Positions 5,209 to 61,597 of a DNA stretch of 64,000 nucleotides are shown piece after piece. The DNA is from Actinomycetota bacterium (lineage in GTDB: Bacteria > Actinomycetota > Thermoleophilia > RBG-16-64-13). The notes under the pieces are model-generated. The model was not told where the DNA came from and did not search any database. It worked only from the letters and a program-made list of their open reading frames with translations. Where the stretch lies: NCBI GenBank assembly GCA_036795215.1, contig DAIRFC010000004.1, positions 4,822 through 68,821 on the forward strand, read 5' to 3'. Each line of letters begins with the position of its first letter. Positions within the stretch are counted from its first letter, which is position 1. The translations under genes and the position numbers were made by a program.

Positions 5209-6066
5209 TCATCCACCCAGTGCCGCTCTCAACCCCTCCTTGAACGGGGTGGTCGGGCGGCCGATGAGCCTGGAGAGGTCGCCGCTCGTCTCACCGAGCA
5301 GCCCCGCGGCGATGTTGGCGTCCAACGCAGCCGCGAACTCCGCGCCCGGTCCTGGGACACCCGCGCCGGTGAGGATCTCGATCAGGGCGGCGCCGTCCAC
5401 CGGTTGGTAGGTGATGGGCTTGCCGAGCAGCTCGGTGAGTGCGGCCGCCAACTCGTTGAAGTCCCAGGCGTAGTCGCCGGACAGCTCGTAGACCTTGCCC
5501 TCATGACCGTCGCCCAGCAGTACCGTGGCTGCCGCCGCCGCGTAGTCGGCGCGGCCGGCACTCGCCACCCGGCCGTCACCCGCCGCGGCGACGATGGTGC
5601 CGGTCTGCTTGGCGGTCTCGGCCGTGCGGACGTAGTTCTCGGTGTACCAGCCGTCGCGCAGGACGGTGTACGGCAGGCCGGAGGCGGCCAGATACTCCTC
5701 GGTAGCCTTGTGCTCGGGCGCGAGGACCAGCGCCGACGTCGTCGCCTTGGGGGCGCTGGTATAGATGAGGTGCTTCACCCCTGCAGACTTGGCCGCGTCG
5801 ATCACGTTCTTGTGCTGCGGGATGCGCTTGCCCACCTCACTGCCCGAGACGAGCAGCACCTTGTCGACGCCGCTTAGAGCCGCCTCGAGCGCGGGAGGGT
5901 CGTCGTAGGAGGCCACCCGCACCTGCGGGCCGCGCGCCGCAAGATCGGCAGCCTTCTCCGCGTCACGCACCACGGCCACGATTTTCTCGGGGGGTTGGGT
6001 CTTGAGGAGTTCCTCAACGACAAGGCGGCCAAGCTTGCCGGTCGCCCCGGTCACTGCGTAGTTCAT
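5209..6066 (-). CDS. NAD(P)H-binding NmrA/SDR-like oxidoreductase
   Basis: N-terminal Rossmann motif VTGATGKLG. Full-length similarity to the NmrA/YtfG quinone-oxidoreductase-2 family. Confidence 0.75.
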   Translation of the reverse strand: MNYAVTGATGKLGRLVVEELLKTQPPEKIVAVVRDAEKAADLAARGPQVRVASYDDPPALEAALSGVDKVLLVSGSEVGKRIPQHKNVIDAAKSAGVKHLIYTSAPKATTSALVLAPEHKATEEYLAASGLPYTVLRDGWYTENYVRTAETAKQTGTIVAAAGDGRVASAGRADYAAAAATVLLGDGHEGKVYELSGDYAWDFNELAAALTELLGKPITYQPVDGAALIEILTGAGVPGPGAEFAAALDANIAAGLLGETSGDLSRLIGRPTTPFKEGLRAALGG

Positions 6067-6124
6067 CTCGCCTCCCTCTCGCGATGTGTCACAGCGCTGT
6101 CGCGGCGGATTGTAGCCGAGTCAG

Positions 6125-6364
6125 GTGCGCGCCGGCATGGCGTACGCCCGCGTTCAGCTGACGGCCCAGAGTATGGGGCTCGCGGTGCAGCCGCTCAGCC
6201 AGATCCTCGAGGAATATCCGGAGATGGCGTCGCTCTACACCCAGGTCCACGCCGAGTACGCGCCGAACGGCGAGACCATCCAGATGCTGGTGCGGGTCGG
6301 CAGGCCCACCCAGGAGGTGCCGCGCAGCATGCGCCGCGATGCGGCCGACCTGCTCATGGAGTAG
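6125..6364 (+). pseudogene. C-terminal fragment of a nitroreductase-family (Acg-like) gene
   Basis: Only about 79 codons, resembling the C-terminal tail of large nitroreductase-family proteins (..TIQMLVRVGRPTQEVP..). No upstream N-terminal coding region; the space upstream is occupied by the divergent SDR gene. Confidence 0.4.
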
Positions 6365-6375
6365 GGCCGCCGCCG

Positions 6376-6972
6376 TCAGGCTCGTGGGAAACAGCGCGCG
6401 GTCATCTCGCCGGCTTCCCTCAGCCACTCGGCTCTCTGCTCGGGGGTGCTGGTGATGATGACTCCGAACATCCGGCGGTAGAACTCATTGACGCCGCACG
6501 AGACGAACATGTTGTTCTTCCAGAGCGATTCCAAGGGATCGCCGTAGAGGCTCGTCTCTCGCTCCACCGGCGTGTTCGACGTGTTCAGCACGAGGACGGC
6601 CCGCGCCTTGAGGAGCCCGATGAGCTCCCCGTCGCCCTGGTCGCCTTCGGCGAAGGTGTAGGCCACTCCCGGACGCAACACCCGATCCACCCAGCCCTTG
6701 AGGATGGCAGGCGGCTGTCCCCACCAATTGGGATGCACGATCACGATGCCCTCGGCGGCGGCGATCTCGGCGCAGTGCTTCCGGACGATCCGCGGCAGCT
6801 CCACATCCCTCGGGATCTCCCGAGCGGGCAGGATGGCGGGGAACCTCTCCTTGTAGAGGTCGTGGAACGCCACCTCGTGCCCGTTGGCTTGGAGCGCGTC
6901 CACCGCGGCGGCCGCGAGTGCATGATTGAAGCTCCCCGAATCGGGATGCGCAAGAATGACCGTTGCTCTCAT
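6376..6972 (-). CDS. flavodoxin-like fold NAD(P)H-dependent oxidoreductase (NQO1/Flavodoxin_2 family)
   Basis: MRATVILAHPDSGSFNHALA.. N-terminus and the overall pattern are typical of NAD(P)H dehydrogenase (quinone) / flavodoxin-like proteins. Confidence 0.75.
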   Translation of the reverse strand: MRATVILAHPDSGSFNHALAAAAVDALQANGHEVAFHDLYKERFPAILPAREIPRDVELPRIVRKHCAEIAAAEGIVIVHPNWWGQPPAILKGWVDRVLRPGVAYTFAEGDQGDGELIGLLKARAVLVLNTSNTPVERETSLYGDPLESLWKNNMFVSCGVNEFYRRMFGVIITSTPEQRAEWLREAGEMTARCFPRA

Positions 6973-7204
6973 GGTTCCCCCTGGGCCGCGGCGCCCCTCG
7001 TGGTTTGACTCGCCGGCGGTGCCGACTCCACAAGTATGGCAGACGGGTGGGTGCCGGTCCTTTGGCGAACAGGTTGGTCTCCCTCGAGAACGCCTTTAGG
7101 GTCGGAACCGCGATCGAGAAGAACGACAAGTCCACCCACCCTCTTGCGCCTGAGTACAACGAAGGTCGCAGAGCAATGCATTCGAGCCCGTCTATGCTCA
7201 AAGC

Positions 7205-7462
7205 ATGGAAGAACGACTCATACTTGGGATCCACGCTATGGAGGTCCTCGAGCAGCGCGAGATCAGGCTTGAGTGGGTGGCTCGTGTGCTCGCAGAGCCT
7301 CTATTGGTCCGAGACGACCCCAAGGACCCTTCCCTTGTCCAGGCGTTTGGTCGCATCAGGGAACGAGACGGAAGGGTCTTGAGGGTTGTGTATACTCAAA
7401 ATGAAGGTTCGATCTACTTGGTTACGGTGTTCTTCGACCGGTCCATGAAGGGGAAGCTGTGA
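7205..7462 (+). CDS. DUF4258 domain protein (putative toxin of a DUF4258/DUF2283 pair)
   Basis: HAMEVLEQREIRLEWVARVL matches the DUF4258 HA.ER..ERGI signature. Its stop overlaps the next start by GTGA. Confidence 0.6.
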   Translation: MEERLILGIHAMEVLEQREIRLEWVARVLAEPLLVRDDPKDPSLVQAFGRIRERDGRVLRVVYTQNEGSIYLVTVFFDRSMKGKL

Positions 7463-7659
7463 GAGTGACCTTCGATCAAGAGGCTGACGCCCTTTACGTG
7501 CGCTTGGACAAGTCCCACATCGTCGAGACGGAAGAAGTACGCCCGGGTGTGATGCTCGATTTTGACGAGCGGGGCGAGGTCGTGGGTCTGGAAGTCCTTC
7601 GTGCCGGGGAGAGGCTGTCCATCTCGGAACTCAAGCACATGGACTTTGAGTTGCTCTAG
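7459..7659 (+). CDS. DUF2283 domain protein (putative antitoxin partner)
   Basis: 66 aa with the DUF2283 signature (YDQEADALYVRL...E). Translationally coupled to the DUF4258 gene by a GTGA overlap. Confidence 0.6.
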   Translation: MRVTFDQEADALYVRLDKSHIVETEEVRPGVMLDFDERGEVVGLEVLRAGERLSISELKHMDFELL

Positions 7660-26226: not shown

Positions 26227-27333
26227 ATGAACATCCGGTCCGGCATGAGCATCAGAAGCGTGGCCGCGCGCAGAGTGGGGCCGGTCACGGTCGTGGTCGG
26301 GATAGTCATGGCGCTGATCGTTTGCGCCATGATGCTTCTGGGGGTCTCATCCGCCCAGGCCCTGGTCCCGCTCCTCAACCCTGACGAGCCGAACGACAGT
26401 TTTCCTGCCGCGACGCAGCTCCAGAACGGGTTGGAGATCTGGGGCGCTATCCCCGAGGCAGGCGACGAAGACTTCTTCTATCTGGATATCCCGAGCCGGA
26501 GCCGGGTCACCGTGGAGTTCAACACTCAGGGTGTGCCCAGGGAGTGCGGGCTGGCCTTCATGGCCAAAGGCGGCGATGTGATCGCCGACCTCGCCTGGGA
26601 GAAGCGCTATGACGACGACGGGAGCTTCCTCGCCGACGGGATCGTCGGACCCGGACGGCTCTTCGCTATGGTCTCAGCGGGCAGCGGGCAGGCCGGTGTA
26701 GAGGTCTATACGATCGAAGTGACATACGAAGCCGCGGGAACTACCGCCTCCTTCCCCGATGTGCCGGTAGGATCGCCATACTACGAGGCCGTGATAGGTC
26801 TGGCGGGCGAGGAGGTGGTCTCCGGATACAAGGACGGCCGGTTCGGCCCCAGCGATTTCGTGACCCGCCAGCAGTTCGCCAAGATGATCGTGCGGGCGGT
26901 GGGCTACCCGGTCTTCACCAGCGACGTGTGCCCGTTCACCGATGTCTCCAAGAGCTACCCCGGCCACTACGTGGACCCCAACGATCCTCTCTACCCTGAT
27001 CACTACATCGCCGTCGCAGCCGAGCATCACATCACGGTAGGTTTGGATCCCACCACCACCACGTTTGGACCGTACCGGAACATCACGATGGCTCAGGTCG
27101 TCACCATGGTGGTCCGCACGGGTATCGACCTCGGCCTGTGGGACTCTCCTCCCCACGCGTTCGAGCCCCCGTTCGAGGACTTCGGGGAGCCCCATTACCC
27201 TTACGCGCGCATGGGCGCGGCGCACGGCCTCTTCAACGGCTACCCGGGGCCGTGGGGCTGGTTCGCACCGGCGACCAGAGGCCAATGCGCCTTCTTCATC
27301 TGGAAGCTCATGGGCGCCTACAACGTTGACTGA
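26227..27333 (+). CDS. secreted PPC (pre-peptidase C-terminal)-like domain + SLH domain protein
   Basis: Signal peptide. PPC-like beta-sandwich (..DSFPAATQL..GDEDFFYLDI..RVTVEF). SLH repeats (FPDVPVGSPYYEAV..; CPFTDV..YPDHYIAVAAEHHITVG..). Confidence 0.7.
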   Translation: MNIRSGMSIRSVAARRVGPVTVVVGIVMALIVCAMMLLGVSSAQALVPLLNPDEPNDSFPAATQLQNGLEIWGAIPEAGDEDFFYLDIPSRSRVTVEFNTQGVPRECGLAFMAKGGDVIADLAWEKRYDDDGSFLADGIVGPGRLFAMVSAGSGQAGVEVYTIEVTYEAAGTTASFPDVPVGSPYYEAVIGLAGEEVVSGYKDGRFGPSDFVTRQQFAKMIVRAVGYPVFTSDVCPFTDVSKSYPGHYVDPNDPLYPDHYIAVAAEHHITVGLDPTTTTFGPYRNITMAQVVTMVVRTGIDLGLWDSPPHAFEPPFEDFGEPHYPYARMGAAHGLFNGYPGPWGWFAPATRGQCAFFIWKLMGAYNVD

Positions 27334-27351: not shown

Positions 27352-28893
27352 TTATTCGTAGGTGATGTCGTACGTGTTGTCGTGCAGGGCGTTTGAGCCG
27401 ATGATGGGGTACGAATCGGCGCCCACGTAGATGCCCCAGTGGTTGTCATAGCACTCGTTATCGTAGACGGCGCCGTCCGATTGGTCGGCAAAGTAGATGC
27501 CGGCGTCACCGTTGGAGCTGCATTCGTTGCCGATGAGCTCGCCGTACGAGTATCCGAACAGGGCGATCCCGTCAGCCCCGTTGTCTGCCAGCGTGCAGTC
27601 CTCGATGGTGACCTGGGCGGCATCGGCGACTGCGATACCATCGTTGCCGTTGGAATCGCAGGTGCAGCTCATGATGGTCCCGGTCGATTCATCCCAGAAA
27701 CATATACCGCTTTGTACGTTCTCCGAACATACGCTGTTGGCTATCTGCAGATCCGATGCTTCTTCGACGTCGATGCCGTGCAGGCCGTTCTGTGCGAACA
27801 CGCTGTCGATCACCTCGCCGAAGGAGTATCCGTAGAGGTATAGACCGGCTCCTTGCAAGTCATTCTGCCGCGAGCCCCCCGTCACATAGCAGCGTCGCAG
27901 ACCGAGATCGGCGTCGCAGGCCACGATAACGTTGGACGGACCGCTTGTGACGGTGCTCACGAACCGGATGTCTTCTGCGTAGAAGGCGCATTGGTAGACA
28001 TCTAGCACGTCGCCCGCGAACTGTATCGTCGTGCTGTTCGGCCCCTGCATGGCGTAGCCGATGAGCGCCAGATCGTAGTCGACCATGAGCGTGCTTGTGA
28101 GAGTGAAGGTACCGGCGCCCAGATAGATGGTCGCACCCGGGGCGACCGCGGCGACGGCTGCCTCGAGGGTGGGATAGTCGCCGCTGCCGTCGGGATAGAT
28201 CCAGACTTCATCGGACGGCTGCACGGGCGCTCCCTCCAGCAGGTCGAGCAGGTTCCAGAGTATCTGGGCGACCTCCCCGCGCGTGGCGTTGGCGGTGACG
28301 TTCCAGCCGAGGCCCATGCCGATGAGGCCATCGAGTAGTCCATTGTATTCGGCTATGCGCAGGTTCTCGCCATGAGGTTCACCGACGTTGTCGAAGACCA
28401 GTGGAGCACCGGGGGAAGGATCCCAGAGCGCCCCCGGGTACAGACTCTCGGCGCCGTGGACTACCATGCTCACAACCTGGTCGCGGCGGATGGAGTCCCA
28501 GGGCGCGAACAGAGTCTGAGTGGCATTGGTGCCGTAGGTGATGCCGTGTTCATAGGCCGCCTGCACGTACTTGTGCGGATAGCCGTTGGCGTCGGGCGAC
28601 CCGAGGTCGGTGAAGCACGTTGCGGTGGAGGGATCCGGGATGATGTCCAGCGTTCCTATGATCATCTTGGCGAACTGGGCGCGTTTCACCGAGTCGTCGA
28701 GGCCGAACCTCCCGTCGCGATACCCGCCGATGACCCCCAGGTACGAAAGAACGTCGATGGCCTTCTTGTATTCGTGCTCGTTCGGGACATCGGGAAAGGC
28801 CGAAGCGGGGTTGCCCATCGCGAGCAGGATGATCACCGTGAGCACGATGGCGCCCAAGACGGCCGGCCGGGCCTTGGCTTTGCGACACGACAT
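27352..28893 (-). CDS. secreted SLH-domain + right-handed parallel beta-helix (PbH1) protein
   Basis: Internal ATG 28893 gives a signal peptide MSCRKAKARPAVLGAIVLTVIILLA. SLH repeats follow, then at least eight GxxGIxxxxxSxxxxNxxC-type beta-helix rungs in the C-terminal half. Confidence 0.7.
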   Translation of the reverse strand: MSCRKAKARPAVLGAIVLTVIILLAMGNPASAFPDVPNEHEYKKAIDVLSYLGVIGGYRDGRFGLDDSVKRAQFAKMIIGTLDIIPDPSTATCFTDLGSPDANGYPHKYVQAAYEHGITYGTNATQTLFAPWDSIRRDQVVSMVVHGAESLYPGALWDPSPGAPLVFDNVGEPHGENLRIAEYNGLLDGLIGMGLGWNVTANATRGEVAQILWNLLDLLEGAPVQPSDEVWIYPDGSGDYPTLEAAVAAVAPGATIYLGAGTFTLTSTLMVDYDLALIGYAMQGPNSTTIQFAGDVLDVYQCAFYAEDIRFVSTVTSGPSNVIVACDADLGLRRCYVTGGSRQNDLQGAGLYLYGYSFGEVIDSVFAQNGLHGIDVEEASDLQIANSVCSENVQSGICFWDESTGTIMSCTCDSNGNDGIAVADAAQVTIEDCTLADNGADGIALFGYSYGELIGNECSSNGDAGIYFADQSDGAVYDNECYDNHWGIYVGADSYPIIGSNALHDNTYDITYE

Positions 28894-29063
28894 GGCGCAC
28901 CTCTCACTTCTGCCGATCCCGGCGATGATAGTGGGATCTGGTTGCATGGGCACTTGCTGGATTTGAGCGTAGAGCCAGTATGGCGAAATCGCAAGCGCCC
29001 TGACTCTCGTCTTGTCGTATTCTCCTTGGTTTGAGTCATCCCAGTCACGGAGACATTCCTCGT

Positions 29064-30746
29064 ATGACACACACCGATACCAGTGAGCGGCGCGGGGCTC
29101 GCGGAGCTGCGTCTTCCGTGGCGGCATCGACTAGGGTGGCGGTCGCAGCCGCCATTCTGTGCGGAGTCTTGTTTGCCGGCCTTCTGCTGGTGGGTTGCGG
29201 AGACTCCGGTCTTGAGGAAGTGCAACTCGAGAGCGGACCCGTCATTGGGCTGGTCGAAGAGGTGGACGGGCAGGAGATCTGGGTCTTCAAGGGCATCCCC
29301 TATGCCGCCCCGCCGGTGGGCGGGCTCCGCTGGAAGCCGCCTCAACCCGTGGAACCCTGGACGGAGCCCCTCGTCTGCACGGAGCCTGGGCCGGCGTGTC
29401 CACAGGCGGGTGGAGAGGGTCTGTTCAATATCGCGGCCCTCGCCGTCGGGGAGATGGACGAAGACTGCCTGTACCTGAATGTGTGGTCGCCGGTGGAGTC
29501 CGCTGATGAGGCGCTACCCGTCATGGTATGGATCCATGGGGGGAGCTTTGAGAGCGGGTCGGGCGCTATGGGCGTGTACAACGGCGCTAGGTTGGCCACC
29601 AAGGGTGTGGTGGTGGTGAGCATCAACTACCGTTTGGGGCCGCTCGGCTTTCTGGCGCATCCCGCTCTCTCGGCCGAGTCGCCGGAGGGCGTGTCCGGCA
29701 ACTATGGGCTTCTCGACCAGGTAGCCGCTCTCCGGTGGGTCCGGGCGAACATCGCGGGTTTTGGGGGCGACGCGGCCAACGTCACGGTGTTCGGGGAGTC
29801 GGCGGGGGCCATCAGCATCCTGGGTCTTCTGGTGAGCCCGCTGGCTGAGGGCCTCTTCGACCGAGCCATACCGCAGAGTGGCATCCTCCTTGACCATGGT
29901 TTCGGAGTGTCGACCGCGGTGACCCTCGATGCCGCGGAGGCGGCCGGGGAGGACTACGTTTCGTACTTGGAGATAGATCTTGCCGGTGATGTGCTTGCTC
30001 AGATGCGGTCGAAGACGGCGGGCGCGCTCGTTGAGGCGGCCGGCAAGTACGCACGTGGGCTTGGCCTTCTGGAGAAAGGTCTGACCTGGACGCCCGTGGC
30101 CGACGGGTATCTGCTGCCCGATCTGCCCGGCAAGCTCTGGGCCGAGGGCAGGTGCCACAGCGTTCCGTTGCTCATCGGTTCGAACGCCGATGAAGGGAAC
30201 CTCTTCGTAGCCGGCATGACCGTGGAGCCCGATCAATACGAGGCCCAGATGCGGAAGATCTTCGGGCTCTACGCCGAGGAGGCGCTGGCGCTCTATCCCA
30301 ATGACGGGAAGCAGGGTCTGGACTCCAGTCTCAGCCGCATGCTCACCGAGGTCGGTTTTGCCTCCACGGCCCGGCTTGCGGCCGGTTGCATGGCCGGATC
30401 CACGGATTCACCGGCGTATCTCTATCAGTTCACGCGCGTCCCCGTGGTGTTGAGTACACTCGGGGCCATCCATTCCATCGAGATCCCCTATATGACCGGT
30501 AACACCGGTCTCTTCTCGAGTCTGGGAGCCATCACAAAGACCGACCTCGAGCTGTCCGAAACCATGATGGGCTACTGGACCCGTTTCGCGGCCACAGGTG
30601 ATCCGAACGGTGAAGGAGCTCCGCAGTGGCCACGGTATGACGCGGCGTCCGACCAGCATCTCGAGCTGGGCGACGACATCCGCGTGGGCAGCGGTCTCTA
30701 CCGTGAAGCCTGCGATCTGGCCGACCGGTTGAGAGGGATCGAGTAG
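29064..30746 (+). CDS. type-B carboxylesterase/lipase family lipoprotein (para-nitrobenzyl-esterase-like)
   Basis: Lipobox LLLVGC. Oxyanion-hole motif HGGSF and nucleophile elbow GESAGA. Length and pattern fit the COesterase family. Confidence 0.8.
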   Translation: MTHTDTSERRGARGAASSVAASTRVAVAAAILCGVLFAGLLLVGCGDSGLEEVQLESGPVIGLVEEVDGQEIWVFKGIPYAAPPVGGLRWKPPQPVEPWTEPLVCTEPGPACPQAGGEGLFNIAALAVGEMDEDCLYLNVWSPVESADEALPVMVWIHGGSFESGSGAMGVYNGARLATKGVVVVSINYRLGPLGFLAHPALSAESPEGVSGNYGLLDQVAALRWVRANIAGFGGDAANVTVFGESAGAISILGLLVSPLAEGLFDRAIPQSGILLDHGFGVSTAVTLDAAEAAGEDYVSYLEIDLAGDVLAQMRSKTAGALVEAAGKYARGLGLLEKGLTWTPVADGYLLPDLPGKLWAEGRCHSVPLLIGSNADEGNLFVAGMTVEPDQYEAQMRKIFGLYAEEALALYPNDGKQGLDSSLSRMLTEVGFASTARLAAGCMAGSTDSPAYLYQFTRVPVVLSTLGAIHSIEIPYMTGNTGLFSSLGAITKTDLELSETMMGYWTRFAATGDPNGEGAPQWPRYDAASDQHLELGDDIRVGSGLYREACDLADRLRGIE

Positions 30747-30763: not shown

Positions 30764-31429
30764 CTATTCGGAGAGCGTGAACGGCGGGTACTGGTCGGTG
30801 ATCAGGAGGAACGCGTATGCCTCCACCCTCATCGTCCAGCGGTAGACCCCCACCACGTAATCGAAGAGCCCGCGCGGGTAGCGTGTCGTGAACAGGATGG
30901 CGAACCAGGCGATGATCACGCAGACGCAGACACCGATCCATAAGAAGGCGAGCACGATCCAGTGGGGGATCGCCAAGAGCCACTTGAAGATGGGCAAGAC
31001 CCTGTTCAGCTGCCGGGCGTCCGGATAGGAGAAATCCAGATGTACAGCCTGTTCCTCATCGGTGGAGGGGTACTCGTCGCGCAAGAGCAGAGCGTACGCT
31101 CCAACGCGGGCAAGGAACCGGGATAGATTGAGGTTCCAATCGAACCACCACCGCGGGTACTTCTGACGGAAAAGGAGCATCAGCAACACAGGGACGAAGA
31201 GGATGCCTCCCGCAGCCCACGACCAAGAATAGTCGTTGCCTTCCGCGGAGATGGTGCCCGAGCCGATGAGCGCCGCTATCACGCCGATAGGGATTATCCA
31301 CAGAAAACGGAAGAAGCTGGACAGTCGATCGAGGGGGCGGTCTGGATAATCGACCGTGAACGTGAGGGGGTACGAAGTCGTTGGTGGGCCGGTCTCGGTC
31401 GAGGGATAGCGATCTGCCGGTTCTTCCAT
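30764..31429 (-). CDS. DUF4389 domain membrane protein
   Basis: Duplicated DUF4389 pattern (..YPDRPLDRLSSFFRFLWIIP..; ..YPDARQLNRVLPIFKWLLAIP..). GGAGG RBS. Confidence 0.65.
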   Translation of the reverse strand: MEEPADRYPSTETGPPTTSYPLTFTVDYPDRPLDRLSSFFRFLWIIPIGVIAALIGSGTISAEGNDYSWSWAAGGILFVPVLLMLLFRQKYPRWWFDWNLNLSRFLARVGAYALLLRDEYPSTDEEQAVHLDFSYPDARQLNRVLPIFKWLLAIPHWIVLAFLWIGVCVCVIIAWFAILFTTRYPRGLFDYVVGVYRWTMRVEAYAFLLITDQYPPFTLSE

Positions 31430-31585
31430 GACCTACCTCCGTGGAGAAGACGTTGCAGGGGACTGCACACCACTCGTGAAAAGGTACCAGAACCTGGTTG
31501 CGGAGTCTCTGCGCTAACATAGAAGCGTCGTACTAGGGCCGAGGGGGTGAACGTTCGTGCCTGCGCATCTGATCAGAGGCGTGTC

Positions 31586-33391
31586 ATGACAGCGCCGGTG
31601 GCCCCGGCGGCCGAACGCGAGTCGGTCAAGAAGCTGTTCACCCGTCTCCATCAGGCGTATCGAGGTCTTCGGCTCTACCCACCCGCTCACCCTTCGGTCC
31701 GCACTGCTCTAGCGGACTTCTCACAGTCGGTGGCCGCCCATCTGGAGACCTGGGGTCCCATCCCGCTGGTGGTCGAGGAGGACCAGATACTCTTCCACGA
31801 CCAGTCGGTCTACTACCACGAGGACACCAGGAACAACCTGGCGTTCATGATGTTCCGCGACGGGATCCGGTTCCTTCTGTTCCAGCCCGGCATCATGCGC
31901 GAAGAGGTGGAGGCCTTCGTGGAGTGCCTCTCGCAGGCCGACGATCTGGCGGACATCGAGTACGACCTGACCACTGCTCTGTGGGAGCGCGATCTCCAGC
32001 ATATCGAGTATGAGGTGATCGATCCGTTTCTCGGCGCCGGCGGCGAGGCTATGCGTAACGACGCTATGACCGATCTGCGTGAGACCGTGGTCCGCCGTTT
32101 GGGTGAGCTCAAACCTGGCACTACCTCCGTGCAGGTAGTCAACCCTCCGGCCGGCGGCGATTCTCAGCCGGGAGGTAGGATCGTCGGGATAGGCGAAGAT
32201 GGTGCGAAGGGTGAGGAGCAGGGTGACGCCTCCCCACACTATGAGGAGGAAGACACCGGCGAGGACGACCAGGCTGAGGCCGGGAACGTGCTCGACACTG
32301 CTCTCATCACTCTCACCGACGAAGAGATCGAGCAAGGGGAGCAGGCTGTCGCCGAGCTCGCACAGACCACGCTGTCGGACTTCGCGGTGGTGGTGCTTGA
32401 GATCGCGGGCAATCCGGACGATCCACCGGGGGGAGAGGACGTGCTGGCCCGCTCCATCGGCCTCGTGGTCGAACAGTATCTCGACACGCTCGATGTGGAT
32501 GGTCTCGCCCTCGTGGTAGACCGTCTTCAGAGTCTGCGTGATCAGGGACGTAGGTCATCGGACTTCGGGCGCCTTGCTTTCGGTCGGGCTATGAGCGCCG
32601 AGCGCCTTACCCGGTTGATCGACCACGGCAACCAGAAATCCGCGGATGAGACTGCTCGGGTAGAGGGGCTTCTTGCCCGAATACGCGAATGGATATACCC
32701 CGGCCTGCTGGATGCCCTCGCGGAAAGCGCGGACAAAGGGGTGCGAAAGACCGTGCTGGCTCTGCTGAACATGGAAGGCGGGGTGCCGGCGCGCTACCTC
32801 TGGCCTCTCATGGACGATGCACGGTGGTTCGTGGTCCGCAACGCGGTGCAGCTGGCCACGCGTTCGGGCGACCCGGAGCTTGTGGGCCATCTCAGCCGGT
32901 TGCTCTCTCACCCCGACGCCCGGGTCCGGCGGGAAGTCGTACGCAGTCTGGACACGGTGGGCGGCAGCCAAGCGGCGGCACTGTTGGCCAAGGCTCTGGC
33001 CGACGATGACTCTTCAGTGCGGACTCTCACGGCGTACGCACTGGCGCGCCATGGCAACCGCGGCCAGGCCGCTGCTCTTGAAGCGCAGGTGGGGTCCCGC
33101 GACCTGGACGGCCGTTCGTCTGAGGAAGTGAACGCTCTCCTCTTTGCCTACGCGAGTCTGGGCGGAGAGACCACGGTGGAAGTCCTCAACAAGATGTGGA
33201 AGCGCCGGTTGTTCGGCACCCGTTCCATGACGGTCCGGATGGCGGCGGTACAGGCCCTGGCCGCCGTGGACACACCGGCTGCCCGGGCGGCGTTGGAGTC
33301 GGCCGCCAAGACGGGAGACGCTCAGTTGCAGAGGGTGGCTGCGCGCGCTCTGAATGCGGTGCGGACCGGTGCAAAGGGGGTGGGGGCGTGA
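31586..33391 (+). CDS. hypothetical protein with C-terminal HEAT (PBS-lyase-type) repeats
   Basis: C-terminal roughly 200 aa has repeated ..D..VR..A..AL..G motifs. Acidic low-complexity linker around residues 200-260. N-terminal roughly 190 aa unassigned. Start at ATG 31586 (AGAGG RBS). Confidence 0.6.
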   Translation: MTAPVAPAAERESVKKLFTRLHQAYRGLRLYPPAHPSVRTALADFSQSVAAHLETWGPIPLVVEEDQILFHDQSVYYHEDTRNNLAFMMFRDGIRFLLFQPGIMREEVEAFVECLSQADDLADIEYDLTTALWERDLQHIEYEVIDPFLGAGGEAMRNDAMTDLRETVVRRLGELKPGTTSVQVVNPPAGGDSQPGGRIVGIGEDGAKGEEQGDASPHYEEEDTGEDDQAEAGNVLDTALITLTDEEIEQGEQAVAELAQTTLSDFAVVVLEIAGNPDDPPGGEDVLARSIGLVVEQYLDTLDVDGLALVVDRLQSLRDQGRRSSDFGRLAFGRAMSAERLTRLIDHGNQKSADETARVEGLLARIREWIYPGLLDALAESADKGVRKTVLALLNMEGGVPARYLWPLMDDARWFVVRNAVQLATRSGDPELVGHLSRLLSHPDARVRREVVRSLDTVGGSQAAALLAKALADDDSSVRTLTAYALARHGNRGQAAALEAQVGSRDLDGRSSEEVNALLFAYASLGGETTVEVLNKMWKRRLFGTRSMTVRMAAVQALAAVDTPAARAALESAAKTGDAQLQRVAARALNAVRTGAKGVGA

Positions 33392-34794
33392 ACACCGCGC
33401 CCGAACAACAGACCAGCGCGCGGCAGCAGCAGGCGCTGGTCTTGGCGCTCGCCTCGGCCGTGCGCACCGCCGGCTACTACGACGAGGGCAACGTCGTGAT
33501 GCAACAAGTGTGCGCGGCGCTGAACTCGATGCTCGGGCGACATGTTGGCGAGGACGGGGTGACCAAGATCTCGGCCTATAGCCATTCCATCTACATCAAT
33601 TCCAGCCGGGTGCCGAATTCTGTCAGCACATACGAGCGGTTCAGCTATCTCATCGAGTCGTTCGAGACCTGGAGGATCGTCTCGCTGTCTTTCTTGCCTG
33701 GACTCACCGAGGAAGAGCTGATGAAGTCCCTGGTACTTCTGGCCGGCGTCCAGCCGGACGAAGCTCTAGAGCTCGAGAAGATGCTTCGCGCTGCCGGCGT
33801 GGAACGCGTCACCGTAGAGCGGGGCGTGCCCGGGCAGACCGCACGGGCGACCGCCGTGACGCCCGTGGTCGCGTACACCGCGGCCATGCAACTCAGCACC
33901 GAGCTGGGCCAGATGAGCGGGTCGTTCGAGACGGGTGTCATCCGGCGTGTGCGCCATGTGACCCAGGCTGTTGTAGACCAGATCATGCGCGACCCGACGT
34001 CTTTGCTGTCTCTCACCACCATCAAAGACTACGACCGGTACCTGGTGCTGCACTCCACCAATGTGGCGGTACTCTCAACCTTGCTCGGGCGGCGTCTGGG
34101 CTTGGACAAGCCGAAGCTGGGCGAGCTTTGCCTGGCCGGCTTCTTGCACGACGCGGGCAAGCTGGGCGTCGATCCGGACGTGCTCAACAAGCCCGGTGCC
34201 CTGGATGACAAGGAGTGGAAGGAGATGCGGCGGCATCCGGTGCTCGCAGCCTACACTCTCCTTGGTGGCCAGCGTCTCAACCCCTCCAACATGCGCGCGG
34301 TGGTGGTGGCCTTCGAGCATCATCTCAACTACGACCTTTCGGGCTACCCCCGCGTGGAGCTCCGCGACAGGCTGTCGCTCTTCGGCAGTATCGTGGCGAT
34401 AGCCGATGTCTTTGACGCGCTCACCACAGCCCGCGTATACCGCAAGGTGAATCCCACGCCTCCCGAGGCCATCTCTGTTCTCATCAAAGAGCGGGGCACG
34501 AGCTTCAATGCGACCTTGGTGAAGCTCTTTGTGGAGGTGATGGGCATATATCCCGTGGGAACAGTGGTGGCGCTCACCGGCAAACAAGCGGGGGTAGTGT
34601 GCCAGCCACCGGCCATCGGCACACCGGTCGATCGTCCGCGGGTGCGAGTGGTGGTCGGAGAAGACTCGGGCAAGATCGTCGACCTGAACCGGCGGGTCGG
34701 GGGTAAGTATCTGCGCAGCGTGGTGGCCGTGCTCAATCCCAGTAACGCAGGTCAGATCCCCGCGGTCGATCCGGCGACCCTGGCCACCTTCTAG
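33388..34794 (+). CDS. HD-GYP domain phosphodiesterase-like protein (probable c-di-GMP hydrolase) with uncharacterised N-terminal domain
   Basis: HD motif (GFLHDAGKL), downstream HH..GYP motif (EHHLNYDLSGYP) and D..D pair. GTG start overlaps the upstream stop as GTGA. Confidence 0.75.
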   Translation: MNTAPEQQTSARQQQALVLALASAVRTAGYYDEGNVVMQQVCAALNSMLGRHVGEDGVTKISAYSHSIYINSSRVPNSVSTYERFSYLIESFETWRIVSLSFLPGLTEEELMKSLVLLAGVQPDEALELEKMLRAAGVERVTVERGVPGQTARATAVTPVVAYTAAMQLSTELGQMSGSFETGVIRRVRHVTQAVVDQIMRDPTSLLSLTTIKDYDRYLVLHSTNVAVLSTLLGRRLGLDKPKLGELCLAGFLHDAGKLGVDPDVLNKPGALDDKEWKEMRRHPVLAAYTLLGGQRLNPSNMRAVVVAFEHHLNYDLSGYPRVELRDRLSLFGSIVAIADVFDALTTARVYRKVNPTPPEAISVLIKERGTSFNATLVKLFVEVMGIYPVGTVVALTGKQAGVVCQPPAIGTPVDRPRVRVVVGEDSGKIVDLNRRVGGKYLRSVVAVLNPSNAGQIPAVDPATLATF

Positions 34795-34829
34795 ATGTGG
34801 CCGTCGCTCGCTCCCGGCGGGCGTTACAG

Positions 34830-35206
34830 CTAGCGGCGCTTCTTGTCTCCTACGAACAAGGACACGATCGTCGAGACCACACTGATGATGAGCGCCCCAA
34901 GAAACGCGCTCCAGAAGCCGTCCACGTGGAACTCGAGACCGATCAAGTCCACCGTGATCCAGGAGGCCAGCCATAGCATCAGACCGTTGATGACCAGCGT
35001 GAAGAGCCCCAGCGTAAGGACGATGAGCCCGCACGAGAAGGCGCGGATGACCGGCCGTATGAAGGCGTTGATCAAGCCGAGAACCAGAGCGACCAGCAGC
35101 ACCGTCCATATGCGGTGAGGCTCGTTGACGTAGATACCCGGAACGAGCCATGCCGCCACTGCCACGGCGGCGGCCGTGATGCCCCAACGGGTGATGAACT
35201 TGGTCA
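34830..35206 (-). CDS. DUF360 (phage-holin-4_2-like) family membrane protein
   Basis: GTG start with AAGGAGG RBS gives (M)TKFITRWGITAAAVAVAAWLVPGI.., the DUF360 N-terminal signature. Four TM helices. Confidence 0.6.
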
Positions 35207-35341
35207 CGGTCCTCCTTGTCGCATACGGCTGGGAACGAGCCCGGGCCGGGCGTTGGGCCGGGCGCAGAGGGCAGACTAGCATGCGCATACGGCCGCCGGT
35301 AGTATGGCGCGGGGGACCGGCTGCCCGCAGATCCGGGGCAG

Positions 35342-36628
35342 GTGGCTGAGGCGACACCATGGCGGAAAGGATCCGGAAGAGGCGTGAAAAGGGCTGAGAC
35401 GGCATCATCTCCGAGCGGGCGGCCGCGGAGCGCCGACACGCTGGCGTTCGCTCTGATGCTCTTCTATCTCCTCTCGACGCTCGCCCTAGCTCTCATGGCC
35501 GTGGTCACCACCGAGCTTCAGCAGAGGTTCGCTCTTTCTGGGTCGCAGCTTGGGCTGCTGACCTCCGTTTTCATGTTCGCCTACGGAGCCATCGGGATCC
35601 CGGCGGGGACCATGGCGGCTCGTTGGGGAGGCCGGGTGCTCGCGGTGAGCGGCGTGTTGCTCGTGGCGGGCTCCCTGGTCTTCGGTCTGAGTTCGTCGTA
35701 CGGCGGTTTTTTGATCGGACGCATCCTGCAAGGTCTGGGTGGCGGGATGGTGCTACCGGTCAGCAGTCCGGTGATAGCGCGGAATCTCGTGCCGGAGGCG
35801 CGCAACAGAGGGTGGGGTATCTTCGCCATCGGCAAGGGACTGGGGGCGCTTGTAGCTCTACTGCTGATGCCCAGTGTCGCTTCGCTGGGGGGCTTCCGCG
35901 CCGTGTTCTTGACGACCGCGGCGATGGCGCTCGTCATCGGGGTGTTGGTGTTCGCGCAACGGCCGGTCAGGGCGTTGCCGGACGAGGTGTCTGAGCCTCC
36001 CTCAGTACGCGGTCTGGCGCGTACGCTGGGCGCTGTCTCTCTCAACAGGAGGGTGTTGCTCCTGGGTCTGTTCAACGCGGCCTCGCTGGCGGTCGGGACG
36101 GGTGTGTTGACCTGGAGCCCCGACTTCCTTCAAGGTGAGTACGGTTCGAACGCAGGTGTGGCGGCCTATCTCACGGCGGGACTGGCTGTGGCCCAGGTGA
36201 TCGGAGCGCCGACCGGCGCGGCAGCCGCGATCCGTTGGGGCAGGATGCCCATCATCACCGGGTCGATGGTCGCCATGTCGGTGGTTACCGGCTTGGTCCC
36301 CGTGGCGTCCGGACGGGTGTTTGTGTTCGTGCTGGTAGCTCTTGTGGGGTTCTTCAGCTTCACCTACTTCTCCCCGCGCTTCGCCATGATCCCGGAGGTC
36401 GTGGCCAGGCCCGAGCAGGTGGGGCCCGCCTCGGGACTCATCAACCTCTTGGGTTTCGGGATAGCGACCTTGGCTCCGTGGTTGTTCGGTTTGGCTCTGG
36501 ACGGTGGGGCCGGCTATGGGGCGGGCTATCTGATCCTGGGGGCGTTCGGCATGGCGGGGGCTGTCGGATCGCTTTTCTTCAGGGTGTCCGGACGGTCGGA
36601 AACCGGAGAGGCGGGCGGCCGAGGCTGA
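35342..36628 (+). CDS. MFS transporter
   Basis: Twelve predicted TM helices. MFS motif A-like G.ILQGLGGG. Start codon uncertain (GTG 35342 or in-frame downstream starts). Confidence 0.7.
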   Translation: MAEATPWRKGSGRGVKRAETASSPSGRPRSADTLAFALMLFYLLSTLALALMAVVTTELQQRFALSGSQLGLLTSVFMFAYGAIGIPAGTMAARWGGRVLAVSGVLLVAGSLVFGLSSSYGGFLIGRILQGLGGGMVLPVSSPVIARNLVPEARNRGWGIFAIGKGLGALVALLLMPSVASLGGFRAVFLTTAAMALVIGVLVFAQRPVRALPDEVSEPPSVRGLARTLGAVSLNRRVLLLGLFNAASLAVGTGVLTWSPDFLQGEYGSNAGVAAYLTAGLAVAQVIGAPTGAAAAIRWGRMPIITGSMVAMSVVTGLVPVASGRVFVFVLVALVGFFSFTYFSPRFAMIPEVVARPEQVGPASGLINLLGFGIATLAPWLFGLALDGGAGYGAGYLILGAFGMAGAVGSLFFRVSGRSETGEAGGRG

Positions 36629-36652: not shown

Positions 36653-37537
36653 TCAGGATCCCGTCGTCCCCAACGGGTCAGCCGGCGCGCTCGCCCTCTC
36701 GACGAGGCTGTCGAGCTTGAAGCGAGCGACGCGCGGTGCCTCCAGAGACTCCCATCGACCTGCGGCGCCCAGCGAGCGGGCGCCGACCTCGAAGTGCAAC
36801 ATGGCTATGCCGCAGTCGAGCCTGCGCGAGATGCCGCTTTCGGGCCCGCTCTCCGTCGTCCAGACAACCACGGCGCCGGGCTCGAACGCGAAGCGCCAGG
36901 GCTGCCTGTTGACCGCGGAGGGAGAGATCCTGACGAGCTGCAGGCCCTTCATGGCCCAGGCCGGCCACGTCTCTAGGTCGGACCCTGGGGCGAGCTCTTC
37001 CAGAGGTTTGCGACCATGCGCCCTCATCGCACGTTTGAACAGGCGGTCTCGCGCAGGCGGCCGGACGGCCGCGTGGCCAAGGGGAGAAACGGCCAGGACG
37101 CGCTCCCCCTTGTCGAGTGTCACGAGGTGTGCCGCAACGTGGCGGTCGAAAAAACCTGCCACCCAGCAGGTCGCCAGTCCCAGCGAGGTCGCCTCGAGGA
37201 TGACGGCCTCGCCGAGGTACCCCACGCTCTCTTGAACAGCCGGATGATTCTCGGCGCCCACGAAGACGAGGGCGGCTGGTGCTCCCCGCACCCGGCCATA
37301 GCTACCCACGATGCCTGTGAAGAGCCCGTCCGGCAGTGTGCGGATCACGACGACCCGGGCCACTTCACTGGCGGGCAGGCCGGTGCAGAACGATTCCAGA
37401 CGATCGAGCAACGCCGGGTCGACGGGTGTCCCATCGAGCGTCCGGCTGGAGTGCCGCGCCGTGATGGCGGCGGTCCACTCCTCAACGGGCATCTCGGCAA
37501 GCGCTGCCGGGAAGCCCGGGCTCTCGGAGGCGATCAT
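36653..37537 (-). CDS. nitroreductase-family protein (extended, 294 aa)
   Basis: Nitroreductase-like core (..RHSSR..; ..GLATCWVAG..) with a C-terminal extension. GGAG RBS. Directly downstream of the flavin reductase gene. Confidence 0.6.
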   Translation of the reverse strand: MIASESPGFPAALAEMPVEEWTAAITARHSSRTLDGTPVDPALLDRLESFCTGLPASEVARVVVIRTLPDGLFTGIVGSYGRVRGAPAALVFVGAENHPAVQESVGYLGEAVILEATSLGLATCWVAGFFDRHVAAHLVTLDKGERVLAVSPLGHAAVRPPARDRLFKRAMRAHGRKPLEELAPGSDLETWPAWAMKGLQLVRISPSAVNRQPWRFAFEPGAVVVWTTESGPESGISRRLDCGIAMLHFEVGARSLGAAGRWESLEAPRVARFKLDSLVERASAPADPLGTTGS

Positions 37538-37550
37538 GTTCTCCTCGGTG

Positions 37551-38123
37551 TCATTGCTCGGACTTGATGAGCGCCCTGCCTATGCTCCAAGCATCGCCCA
37601 CGCGCTCGCCCAGCGACCAATAGCTGTTGTCCGGCATGGTGAGGACGAACGGCCGCAGTTTGGTGACGTCTATCTGGCCGTCGGTCATGATGGCCTCAGT
37701 GGCGTATACGCCGGCCACCTCGCCGATGAAGAGATAGTCCTTGGGGAGTTCCACAGTCTGGACGAGACGGCACTCGGCGGTGAGGGGGCATTCCCTGACC
37801 ATGGGGGCCGATTCGAGGGAGCCCCGGAAGATATCGACGTGAGCCGATTTGTCCACCTGATACCCGTGGACGAGGCCGCAGTAGTCTACGAGTTCCGCCT
37901 GGTCGACGCTGGGCACGTTCACGCTGAATTGGCGGGTCTGCTGTATGCCCTTCGCGGTATGTTGCTTGAGGCCCATCGAGACGGCTATGAGCGGAGGCTC
38001 GGTATTCACCCTGGTTACCCAGGCGGCGGTCATGAAGTTCGGCTTGCCGTCGGTGGTGGTACCGACCATGACCACCGGCATGGGATAGACGTTGAAGTTC
38101 TTTCCGATGTTCTTCTTAGCCAT
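37551..38123 (-). CDS. flavin reductase-like FMN-binding domain protein
   Basis: YPMPVVMVGT..NFMTAAW.. split-barrel flavin reductase signature. GGGAGGGA RBS. Confidence 0.75.
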   Translation of the reverse strand: MAKKNIGKNFNVYPMPVVMVGTTTDGKPNFMTAAWVTRVNTEPPLIAVSMGLKQHTAKGIQQTRQFSVNVPSVDQAELVDYCGLVHGYQVDKSAHVDIFRGSLESAPMVRECPLTAECRLVQTVELPKDYLFIGEVAGVYATEAIMTDGQIDVTKLRPFVLTMPDNSYWSLGERVGDAWSIGRALIKSEQ

Positions 38124-38140
38124 CGTCCCTCCCTACGGGT

Positions 38141-38821
38141 CTATGAGTCGAGCACGATCTCACCGTCGAGACCGATCATCACGGTGCGGACGGGAACATC
38201 CACCCCCGAGCATGCGACGGCCTCCTCGACCAGCCGGCTCAATCCCCCGCAGCAGGGCACGGTCATGCGGGCGATGGTGATGGACTTGGGACGATTGGCC
38301 GCTATCAGGTCGACCAGCTTCTTGAGATAGGGACCGGTATCGTCCAACTTGGGGCAGGCGACCACGATCTTGCGGTCCCTCAATAGGTCGGCGTGAAAGC
38401 TCCCCCGGGCGAACGCGGTACAGTCGGCCGCCACCAAGAGGTCGGCCTCCTGGAAGTACGGAGCCTCGGGCGAGATGAGATGTAGTTGCACCGGCCACTG
38501 TGTGAGTTCCGAGGGCGCAGGCGCGGATGACGCCCCAGGGCCCTGGTGCACCGCGGCGGCCGCCTCGGCTCCCCGGGTGTGCACGACATGCTCGCGTGCG
38601 GCCTCGCAGTCGTACTCCTCGCCCTCGCGCTCGACGATAGTGAGGGCGCCTGTCGGGCACACGTCGAGGCAGACCCCCATGCCATCGCAATACAAGTCTC
38701 GCACCAAAACGGCCTTACCTTCTTCGTCCAAGGCCAGTGCTCCCTCGGCGCAGGCAGTGGTGCAAAGACCACAGCCGTCGCACAGGTCGCGATCTATCTG
38801 GATGATTTTTCTGATGCCCAT
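38141..38821 (-). CDS. 4Fe-4S dicluster protein with additional C-terminal Cys-rich domain
   Basis: Internal ATG 38821. CDGCGLCTTACAEGA and CDGMGVCLDVCPTGA ferredoxin motifs, plus a C-terminal CPKLDD...VPCCGG region. Confidence 0.6.
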   Translation of the reverse strand: MGIRKIIQIDRDLCDGCGLCTTACAEGALALDEEGKAVLVRDLYCDGMGVCLDVCPTGALTIVEREGEEYDCEAAREHVVHTRGAEAAAAVHQGPGASSAPAPSELTQWPVQLHLISPEAPYFQEADLLVAADCTAFARGSFHADLLRDRKIVVACPKLDDTGPYLKKLVDLIAANRPKSITIARMTVPCCGGLSRLVEEAVACSGVDVPVRTVMIGLDGEIVLDS

Positions 38822-38931
38822 CGACGGCTCTGGCCTCCTCTTGTGGTCACGGCTCCGGTCTAGGGCGGTTATCGCCCCGGATGCGGCTAGTTGAAACACT
38901 CTCGAGGTGCGACCGGCGGTATAGTGTGGCG

Positions 38932-39879
38932 ATGACATCCGAGCCTCTAGCCAAAGTCTTGGACGATGCCCTCACCCCGGCCGGTTACCGTCACAAAACC
39001 GCGCCGGTGGGTATCGCGCAACAGCTTGCCTCCGATATGGAGGAGTTGCGCGATAAGGGCTTGCTCAGCAACGACTACTGGCAGAGGTATGGGCGGGCGT
39101 TTCGGTTCGATCCTCCCCCTGAGGTCCCCGAACCGCGCACCCTCATCGTGGTCGCCTGGGCATCTCCGGCCGTAAAGGTCGTCTTCCACACAGATGCGGG
39201 CCCGCTGGAGACGGTGTTGCCTCCCACCTATTTCTCGCAGGCCGGTCAGGCGCGTTGTCTGGAGATCTTGCGGGAGGTTCTCGGAGGGGCCGGTCACTCG
39301 GTGGCGCGCGTGCGGGCTCCCAACAAGCTCTTGGCGGTCCGCACCGGCCTCGCCCGGTATGGGCGGAACAACCTGGCCTACGTGGACAACATGGGTACCT
39401 ACGCCCGGCTGGACGTCTACTGCACCGACGCCGATCTGCAGGCTCGGGAGCCCGACGCCAAGAGGAACATGATGCTGAGTACGTGCTCGTCTTGTCATGC
39501 CTGCCACTTCAGCTGTCCGACAGGCGCGATACCGTATGACGGTACGGTCATCGACGCTCTGCGTTGCCTCACCCATCTGAACGAGAACGAAGGCCCGTGG
39601 CCCGATTGGGTGGATCCTCAAGACCACAACGGCTTACTGGGCTGCATGCGCTGCCAGGAGACGTGCCCGGCCAACAGGAGCTTCTTGCGGTTGAAGGCCG
39701 TGGTGGCCGAGTTCGACAGGGATGAGACCGCGATCATTCTCGAGGGCCGCACGCCTGAATGTCTGCCGGCCGGCCTGCGGGCCAAGCTCGACCGCATCGA
39801 TCTGGGCAACGACTCAGTCATCCTGGGCAGGAACCTTCGTGCGCTGTGCGATGCCGCAAGGCCGGTCTTGCCTGCGTGA
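38932..39879 (+). CDS. QueG/reductive-dehalogenase-like 4Fe-4S protein (family uncertain)
   Basis: C-terminal CSSCHACHFSCPTGA ... CMRCQETCPAN two-cluster arrangement, as in epoxyqueuosine-reductase / RdhA-type C-termini. Start could also be ATG 38881. Confidence 0.5.
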   Translation: MTSEPLAKVLDDALTPAGYRHKTAPVGIAQQLASDMEELRDKGLLSNDYWQRYGRAFRFDPPPEVPEPRTLIVVAWASPAVKVVFHTDAGPLETVLPPTYFSQAGQARCLEILREVLGGAGHSVARVRAPNKLLAVRTGLARYGRNNLAYVDNMGTYARLDVYCTDADLQAREPDAKRNMMLSTCSSCHACHFSCPTGAIPYDGTVIDALRCLTHLNENEGPWPDWVDPQDHNGLLGCMRCQETCPANRSFLRLKAVVAEFDRDETAIILEGRTPECLPAGLRAKLDRIDLGNDSVILGRNLRALCDAARPVLPA

Positions 39880-39912
39880 GATCCGTTATCCGGCCGGCCC
39901 GGCACGGACCTC

Positions 39913-39941
39913 TTGACTTGCCCATCCGCATCATGTATATA
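39913..39941 (+). promoter_or_regulatory. AT-rich sigma-70-like promoter driving a leaderless arsR-hdr operon
   Basis: TTGACT at 39913-39918, 17-nt spacer, TATATA at 39936-39941. The arsR ATG at 39949 is about 7 nt after the -10 element, implying a leaderless transcript. Only strongly AT-rich patch for kilobases. Confidence 0.5.
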
Positions 39942-39948
39942 AGTAATC

Positions 39949-40332
39949 ATGCAAATAAAGGATAAAAGCGCGACCGATGCTCCATCGTCCATGCCGGGCG
40001 ACATGCGCCCGCTGTTCGTGCTTCACGCAGAGATGTGCCAGGCTTTGGCGAACGAGCATCGCGTGGCCATCATCTACGCTCTCAAGGATGGGGAGAAATG
40101 CGTCGGCGAGTTGGCTGCGGAGCTGGGCATATCTGTGCACAACGTGTCGCAGCATCTCCGAGTCCTCCGTCAGCGTTCGTGCGTGCGCGCGCGCAAGGAG
40201 GGACAGACGGTCTACTACTCCATCACCAATCCCAAGTTCATGCAGGCCTGCGCGTTGATCCGCGAGGCCTTACTCGAAGAGCACCGGGCCGAAGAGGAAT
40301 CTCTCCGCGCCGCCGGGCTCGCGGACCTGTAG
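39949..40332 (+). CDS. arsR: ArsR/SmtB-family transcriptional regulator
   Basis: Winged-HTH of the ArsR family (..ALANEHRVAIIYAL..GEKCVGELAAELGISVHNVSQHLRVLR..). Confidence 0.8.
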   Translation: MQIKDKSATDAPSSMPGDMRPLFVLHAEMCQALANEHRVAIIYALKDGEKCVGELAAELGISVHNVSQHLRVLRQRSCVRARKEGQTVYYSITNPKFMQACALIREALLEEHRAEEESLRAAGLADL

Positions 40333-61542: not shown

Positions 61543-61597
61543 AAGACCGAGCAACGAGGGCGACCAAGGGCCGTCGCAACAGGAGGGAGTGTCGATC

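Follow-up and report, generated by a model that had tools for sequence, protein, structure and literature searches.

A shared N-terminal domain in the HEAT-repeat protein and the HD-GYP enzyme

The window analysed here is a 64,000-nucleotide (nt) stretch of contig DAIRFC010000004.1 of an Actinomycetota bacterium (assembly GCA_036795215.1), in which two plus-strand open reading frames (ORFs) overlap at their stop and start codons: ORF1 (31586–33391 including the stop codon), encoding a 601-amino-acid (aa) HEAT-repeat protein, and ORF2 (33388–34794, stop codon likewise included), encoding a 468-aa HD-GYP phosphodiesterase that starts with the GTG at 33388. As judged from profile comparisons, the N-termini of the two proteins, which the first-pass annotation of the window had left as two separate unassigned regions, are homologous copies of one previously undescribed domain of ~140 residues (hereafter N-domain). 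No other feature of the locus is as informative, and that annotation did not notice it. The two genes are neighbours in most related loci, the active site of the ORF2 product is intact, and fusions of the two proteins occur elsewhere. On balance, the locus is probably a two-gene operon for a two-subunit cyclic di-GMP (c-di-GMP) phosphodiesterase module with the HEAT protein as its regulatory or adaptor subunit, and our confidence in the observations just named is much higher than in the module as a whole.

Neither N-terminus matched a Pfam family (at E values up to 10) or an NCBIfam model, and the profile search gave no real sequence match in the PDB, where the best hit was the de novo designed protein Octarellin, which was not taken as real. 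A common pattern in the N-termini of ORF1 and ORF2 can be recognised by eye, but pairwise BLASTP between them found only a weak match of 44 residues (E = 0.047), thus profile methods were needed to reveal their homology. In an hhalign comparison of the two N-termini (185 and 210 residues, respectively) the alignment ran over 147 colinear columns from residue 1 in both, with a probability of 96.4% and an E value of 1.2e-9. The real pair scored 65, whereas 20 column-shuffled templates and the reversed template scored at most 17.6, and cross-comparisons of the N-domain with other domains were negative. A plain hidden Markov model built from actinobacterial HEAT N-domains matched the HD-GYP N-termini of other phyla colinearly at 1e-10 to 1e-12, the reverse search also worked, and in distant pairs, such as that of the Methylomirabilia locus L053, the likeness is obvious by eye. 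The order of the secondary-structure elements predicted by AlphaFold2 (AF2) is identical in both copies: two long helices, a beta-hairpin, a helix, a strand, two helices and a strand. The consensus reads L..A.K...LYP..HP ... LA..LF.R.I..L.F..G....EL..F, and the YPxxHP motif is degenerated in the actinobacterial HD-GYP copies. The domain of both proteins can be assigned to a proposed YPxxHP family, defined by a colinear match of ~135 residues located at the extreme N-terminus or directly before the HEAT or HD-GYP part.

DUF3391 (PF11871), found in the Bd1817 family of DUF3391–HD-GYP proteins (including PA4108, VC2497 and BB_0374), was rejected as the identity of the N-domain. The window protein had no match to this Pfam model at E values up to 10, and distant homologues gave only sub-threshold linker-helix matches, confined to profile positions 89–135 in the helical tail (14.8–16.6 bits, cut-off 27.8). 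The topology also differs: DUF3391 consists of four beta-strands followed by two long helices, whereas the N-domain begins with two long helices and continues as a mixed alpha/beta fold. ORF2 thus carries no N-terminal DUF3391, and its GYP motif is intact, in contrast to the degenerate one of Bd1817.

In ORF1, the N-domain covers residues 12–150 (31619–32035) and contains the motifs LYPxxHP, NLAFxMFRDGIR, DLxTALWE and DPF; residues H35, R91, D92, G93, W133 and D146 are invariant in the homologue alignment. Its AF2 model shows the element order H H E E E H E H H E with a predicted local distance difference test (pLDDT) value above 90. The paralogous copy in ORF2 also spans residues 12–150 (33421–33837), where YPxxHP has degenerated to YYDEGN. 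The rest of ORF1 agrees with the first-pass description of an acidic linker and C-terminal HEAT repeats, according to the ORF calls, Pfam, AF2 and the linker composition. The AF2 model (pLDDT 86.4) comprises the N-domain at 8–150, a helix at 153–175, a disordered acidic linker and a continuous alpha-solenoid at 245–597. The linker (residues 177–243, 32114–32314; pLDDT <50) contains 15 Asp and Glu residues versus 2 Lys and Arg, and its length varies between homologues. The solenoid is encoded by 32318–33376, and its C-terminal half consists of PBS-type HEAT repeats, including RWYVVRNA and D-RVRREV. ORF1 shows both characters of PBS-type HEAT proteins, that is, HEAT_2/HEAT profile matches (HEAT_2: 7.7e-22, 77.8 bits, cut-off 27.7) and the alpha-solenoid fold. 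However, no phycobilisome context, as known for the CpcE/CpcF bilin lyases and NblB, was seen here, and the conserved N-domain and the HD-GYP partner distinguish the ORF1 family from these proteins and from the alphaRep consensus designs. Identity with NblB or a CpcE-type bilin lyase was rejected, the NblB model scoring 25.8 bits at a cut-off of 300. Homologues of ORF1 are full-length proteins of 36–79% identity from metagenome-assembled genomes (MAGs) labelled Actinobacteria or Thermoleophilia. An alternative in-frame GTG at 31547 would give a 614-aa product; the 601-aa form is preferred because homologues start at the ATG equivalent (MTAPV...) and because a Shine–Dalgarno-like AGAGG, read from the sequence at 31575–31579 on the plus strand, lies 6 nt 5′ of this ATG.

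The gene pair is conserved and coupled across phyla

A scan with the HEAT alignment, using one genome per species, returned 326 encoding stretches, of which 78 loci were kept. They span Actinomycetota (including Gaiellales), Ignavibacteria, Zixibacteria, Eisenbacteria, Acidobacteriota, Gemmatimonadota, Desulfuromonadales (including the cultured Desulfuromonas sp. CSMB_57, locus L047), Nitrospirota and Methylomirabilia. The first-pass annotation had allowed that the two genes might not be neighbours elsewhere, which proved not to be the case: an HD-GYP homologue lies immediately 3′ of the HEAT gene on the same strand in 68 of the 78 loci, and the match extends into the N-domain in 53 of these 68. 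Three further loci stop at a contig edge, one of them showing the beginning of an N-domain ORF. Clustering of the ORFs revealed that only the HEAT and HD-GYP genes are common across loci, other neighbours being kept only in close relatives. Looking from the opposite side, the HEAT gene was found upstream, with a 4-nt overlap, in all three HD-GYP homologues checked.

The junction of ORF1 and ORF2 (33374–33391, plus strand) consists of the purine-rich AAGGGGGTGGGGG followed by GTGA (33388–33391), in which the GTG of ORF2 overlaps the TGA of ORF1 (33389–33391). The overlap behind the translational coupling claimed for this site could be read directly, and overlaps are available in the relatives as well. 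Of 57 loci, 48 have a candidate start that overlaps the stop codon (by 4 nt, the NTGA type, in 40, by 1 nt in four and by 8 nt in four), with the caveat that an NTG start is likely to occur by chance at a TGA stop. At the level of sequence, the meaningful facts for coupling are the conserved frame relation and the homology reaching residue 1 of ORF2, which starts at the overlap point in many loci. The partner and the N-domain were also absent together: five HEAT homologues, mostly from Gemmatimonadota (L044, L048, L052, L063 and L066), have no N-domain and no HD-GYP neighbour either. These relatives retain the RWYVVRNA-type solenoid, and the N-terminal region of the L044 protein (about 5900–7657) is composed of acidic DLAPDE-type repeats. 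The view that the two genes are neighbours by chance and have no functional relation is contradicted by the conservation of the pair in at least nine phylum-level groups amid changing neighbours, by the fusions and by the shared domain, and it can be regarded as extremely improbable.

Several other loci deserve mention. Three MAGs (with loci L005 and L015, L008 and L030, and L016 and L025) each hold two HEAT/HD-GYP pairs on different contigs, which suggests that partner pairing may need specificity. The L015 and L016 pairs look nearly identical in tblastn values and junction sequence despite their different bins, and binning overlap is possible. In L089 (1–9392), the HEAT gene starts 7 nt after the end of a PAS-GGDEF-EAL gene, and a GGDEF-HD-GYP gene borders the pair on the other side. 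Low-coverage long-read assemblies contained HEAT genes that are split and an HD-GYP remnant truncated to 145 aa (L079/L080, 3274–5438; L090, 1106–4004), which are either pseudogenes or frameshift errors. A word-indexed homologue search with the N-domain profile found only 10 short proteins, and those inspected were fragments, or copies of the pair that are frameshifted or pseudogenised. In the literature searched for a HEAT and HD-GYP pair, no description was found.

ORF2 encodes an apparently competent HD-GYP enzyme

ORF2, whose homologues show 49–99% identity, matched the Pfam families HD_5 (residues 212–376; 3.6e-18, 66.3 bits, cut-off 27.2) and HD (4.9e-9, 36.9 bits, cut-off 22). Its N-domain is connected to the catalytic domain by a helical linker (residues ~159–211, 33862–34020; AF2 helices at 159–175, 182–201 and 203–211). 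The catalytic domain itself (residues 212–386, 34021–34545) contains H222, H254-D255, K258, K268-P-G270, H283, H311-H312, G319-Y-P321, D340 and R349-x-Y-R352. It is followed by a beta-rich C-terminal tail (residues 390–468, 34555–34791; AF2 strands in 393–449) with the motif GIYPVGTVV...G..GVV, which is kept in homologues and matched no Pfam family.

The first-pass annotation had assigned ORF2 to the HD-GYP class and named degenerate catalytic residues as the finding that would speak against its reading. The assignment is confirmed, and no degeneration was found, the HD, HH, GYP and substrate-binding residues being intact. Across 60 aligned full-length homologues, no variation, or almost none, is seen at H222, H254-D255, K258, H283, H311-H312, G319-Y320-P321, D340, R349, Y351 and R352, and the core catalytic and GYP positions together with R349 are conserved also in 62 HD-GYP proteins of the cross-phylum loci. 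The HHExxDGxGYP-type motif is EHHLNYDLSGYP, with G319, Y320 and P321 invariant. The spacing of the metal ligands agrees with that of PmGH, the GAF–HD-GYP protein of Persephonella marina (PDB 4MCW). The third-metal ligand of PmGH, E185, corresponds to Tyr218 in ORF2, an equivalence made by position only, as E185 falls just outside the printed alignment; Tyr occupies this site in 56 of 63 aligned sequences (the window protein and family members). The trinuclear PmGH-like subgroup is marked by an acidic residue located four positions ahead of the first His; ORF2 has none there, and the replacement of E185 by Tyr218 would place the enzyme in the binuclear class, whose members typically halt at pGpG (preprint 10.1101/2021.11.05.467447). 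PmGH differs also in its N-terminal domain, which is GAF, unlike the N-domain of ORF2, and a HEAT partner was not described for it, whereas ORF2 is encoded with an obligate-looking one.

KPG and RxY[K/R] are substrate and specificity motifs of the c-di-GMP type (preprint 10.1101/2021.11.05.467447), and ORF2 carries both, as K268-P-G270 and R349-V-Y-R352. Judged by these motifs, ORF2 is apparently a catalytically competent binuclear-metal HD-GYP enzyme predicted to convert c-di-GMP to pGpG. Another nucleotide such as 3′3′-cGAMP (cyclic GMP-AMP) might be the substrate instead, as V-cGAP3, a cGAMP phosphodiesterase, was the second-best sequence match in the PDB (6.5e-23) and the family is present in Desulfuromonadales, an order in which cGAMP signalling is known. 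We consider this improbable, since RxYR of ORF2 is of the RxY[K/R] type rather than the cGAMP-linked RxxQ/RxxN, and the GGDEF fusions and GGDEF/EAL neighbours of the family indicate c-di-GMP.

Another known system to be compared is RpfG (REC–HD-GYP), which resembles the proposed module in that its HD-GYP function relies on protein–protein contacts besides hydrolysis (preprint 10.1101/2021.11.05.467447). RpfG works with a REC domain and a two-component kinase, neither of which is present here, and recruits its partners from elsewhere, whereas the partner here is a HEAT solenoid from the same operon that shares a domain with the enzyme. No REC or GAF domain was matched in ORF2 by Pfam, and a NosR-type response-regulator model matched its HD-GYP part only (63 bits, cut-off 400).

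Domain fusions and the wider N-domain family

Among 1.84 billion proteins, the N-domain profile identified 5378 representatives at E ≤1e-3 and 1552 at ≤1e-10, the counts referring to protein clusters at 50% identity. Further architectures were drawn from the best 150 of these matches. Five single proteins combine the products of both genes in the order N-HEAT-N-HD (P0305, P0314, P0318, P0352 and P0360). The gene of P0305 was called on a 48-kb NCBI MAG contig (L081, 4001–7360), and an Ala/Pro-rich linker joins the halves of the protein. The reverse order, N-HD-N-HEAT, occurs in P0291. P0300 looks like a frameshift artefact. P0329 is a 943-aa Ser/Thr kinase-N-HEAT protein; downstream of its gene lie an HD-GYP gene, which overlaps it by 4 nt, and next a second kinase gene (L083, 5001–9268). 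Two proteins of ~1,400 aa, P0307 and P0349 (L082, 582–4835), have the architecture GGDEF-AAA_16 (STAND)-N-N-HEAT, and by their domain composition such fusions tie the N-HEAT module to c-di-GMP synthesis.

Since a GGDEF cyclase, too, can be joined to N-HEAT, this module goes along with c-di-GMP production as well as degradation. This would fit a HEAT protein that is the receptor or downstream target of c-di-GMP or pGpG, locally set by the phosphodiesterase, and hence the output of the module and not its regulator. An RxxxR-like string, R91-DGI-R95, may be read in the most conserved motif of the ORF1 N-domain, a reading that is our own; the resemblance is weak and stands in a different structural context. 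Known c-di-GMP-binding domains (PilZ, MshEN, degenerate GGDEF or EAL) were not detected by Pfam or NCBIfam, and a role as receptor appears quite unlikely.

The duplicated domains bear on a further alternative. P0253 is an N-N-HEAT protein, and the N-N tandem, present also in P0307 and P0349, recalls PAS-PAS or GAF-GAF arrays. The shared N-domain may accordingly be a sensor of a small molecule or nucleotide rather than a docking device, in which case each of the two proteins would respond to the common signal on its own, and the HEAT protein would be a co-regulated effector without a stable complex. In HD-GYP proteins, the N-terminal domain usually serves as a sensor (preprint 10.1101/2021.11.05.467447), and the strongly conserved polar residues of the HEAT N-domain (R91, D92, R95, W133, E134 and D146) could line a pocket. 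Nevertheless, fusions in both orders, the conserved overlap and the loss of the partner along with the N-domain fit a complex better, and the degenerated YPxxHP of the actinobacterial HD-GYP copies makes it less likely that the ligand sites of the two proteins are identical. Independent sensing is thus unlikely, though to be taken more seriously than a receptor role of the HEAT protein.

A proposed two-subunit module

A physical module of two subunits is suggested by the conservation and coupling of the operon, by fusions in either order and by the joint presence of N-domain and partner, the five homologues lacking the N-domain being also without the partner. According to the model, the overlapping stop and start codons would lead to co-production of both proteins. 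ORF1 would be the non-catalytic partner, built of an enzyme-type N-domain, a flexible acidic linker and a long HEAT solenoid, the latter being a likely protein-binding platform. The two products would bind each other, with the shared N-domains and their following helices as the most plausible contact. By pairing with the regulatory end of the enzyme, the HEAT subunit may modulate the phosphodiesterase or tether it to a target via the solenoid. Contact specifically between the two N-domains is a tentative element, to which we give somewhat less than an even chance. From the signalling module envisaged in the first-pass annotation, the conserved and coupled gene pair holds, while the role of the HEAT protein as sensor or adaptor is still putative.

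Several observations weigh against this model. The N-N-HEAT proteins still precede a 469-aa HD-GYP gene, which overlaps that of P0253, and this does not fit a simple 1:1 heterodimer; moreover, tandem domain copies are also typical of ligand-binding sensor domains. One N-HEAT gene (L039) has no HD-GYP gene downstream. The fused proteins P0305 and P0314 keep HD and HH and have no GYP motif, so they are possibly non-catalytic, receptor-like derivatives, and some members of the family may not be enzymes. A regex scan of the six-frame ORFs of the window found no GGDEF motif that would point to c-di-GMP synthesis by this organism. Finally, both the physical interaction and the N-to-N contact are predicted from genomic data. 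Because the number of N-domains varies and they might be ligand sensors, the module as a whole is rated as only somewhat probable.

HD-GYP proteins (class II) are the less-studied class of c-di-GMP phosphodiesterases. The enzyme class is already known; what is new is its widespread arrangement with a dedicated HEAT partner carrying the same undescribed N-domain. In the census of HD-GYP proteins, most N-terminal regions are undefined (preprint 10.1101/2021.11.05.467447), and one of these regions turned out to be a real domain with ~5,400 clusters, duplicated on a HEAT partner of the same operon across many phyla, many of the carrier lineages being uncultured and poorly studied. If the complex forms, it would represent a widespread local control of a second messenger through a dedicated scaffold subunit, and two soluble proteins would offer a testable handle on HD-GYP regulation. 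A bolder reading, unlikely as a whole yet not far-fetched, is that the N-domain defines an undescribed large class of signalling hubs, in which HEAT scaffolds capture HD-GYP, GGDEF and Ser/Thr kinase proteins into local complexes and the N-domain could be a heterodimerisation switch, possibly ligand-gated. Such hubs would be the bacterial equivalent of HEAT scaffolds in eukaryotes, for example, the A subunit of PP2A. The analogy with the latter is functional only, with no homology beyond the repeat fold, and docking is proposed here to occur via the duplicated N-domain and not via the solenoid surface. Membership in an anti-phage defence system was considered and rejected, as PADLOC gave only generic HEAT-ARM and Cas3 HD fragments of 15–27 bits.

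The intergenic repeat and the genomic neighbourhood

The divergent intergenic region upstream of ORF1 contains ACCAGAACCTGGT at 31486–31498, which had been described as a perfect palindrome. It is in fact an inverted repeat with 5-bp arms (ACCAG/CTGGT) around a 3-nt spacer (AAC), and probably does not belong to the module. By our own estimate, ~60 such 5+3+5 inverted repeats of any sequence are expected per 64 kb, and relatives of the locus do not keep the repeat 5′ of the pair. Three strings of the class ACCAGNNNCTGGT are present in the window (31486–31498, 62007–62019 and 62963–62975), where dinucleotide shuffles predict 0.04. Both distal copies fall within ORFs (61589–62056 and 62086–63906) and are made of common CAG/CTG codons, so the excess is probably an effect of codon usage and not the trace of a regulator site. 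An operator function of the repeat was therefore rejected, considering the short arms, the lack of conservation upstream of the pair and the coding nature of the other copies. No sigma-70-like promoter and no intrinsic terminator was detected in the 31300–35000 region.

The pair is flanked upstream by a carboxylesterase gene (29031–30746, plus strand; 5e-117) and a divergent gene for a DUF4389 membrane protein (30764–31429, minus strand), and downstream by a convergent gene for a Phage_holin_4_2-family membrane protein (34830–35408, minus strand) and an MFS transporter gene (35342–36628, plus strand). These four genes adjoin the pair only in close actinobacterial relatives, such as L090. Farther upstream, two convergent genes (26227–27333, plus strand, and 27352–29127, minus strand) encode surface proteins with S-layer homology (SLH), the second having an additional right-handed beta-helix or NosD-like region. 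On the other side, the 36653–40332 region is occupied by a redox-looking cluster encoding a TM1586-type nitroreductase, a flavin reductase, two 4Fe-4S proteins and an ArsR-family regulator.

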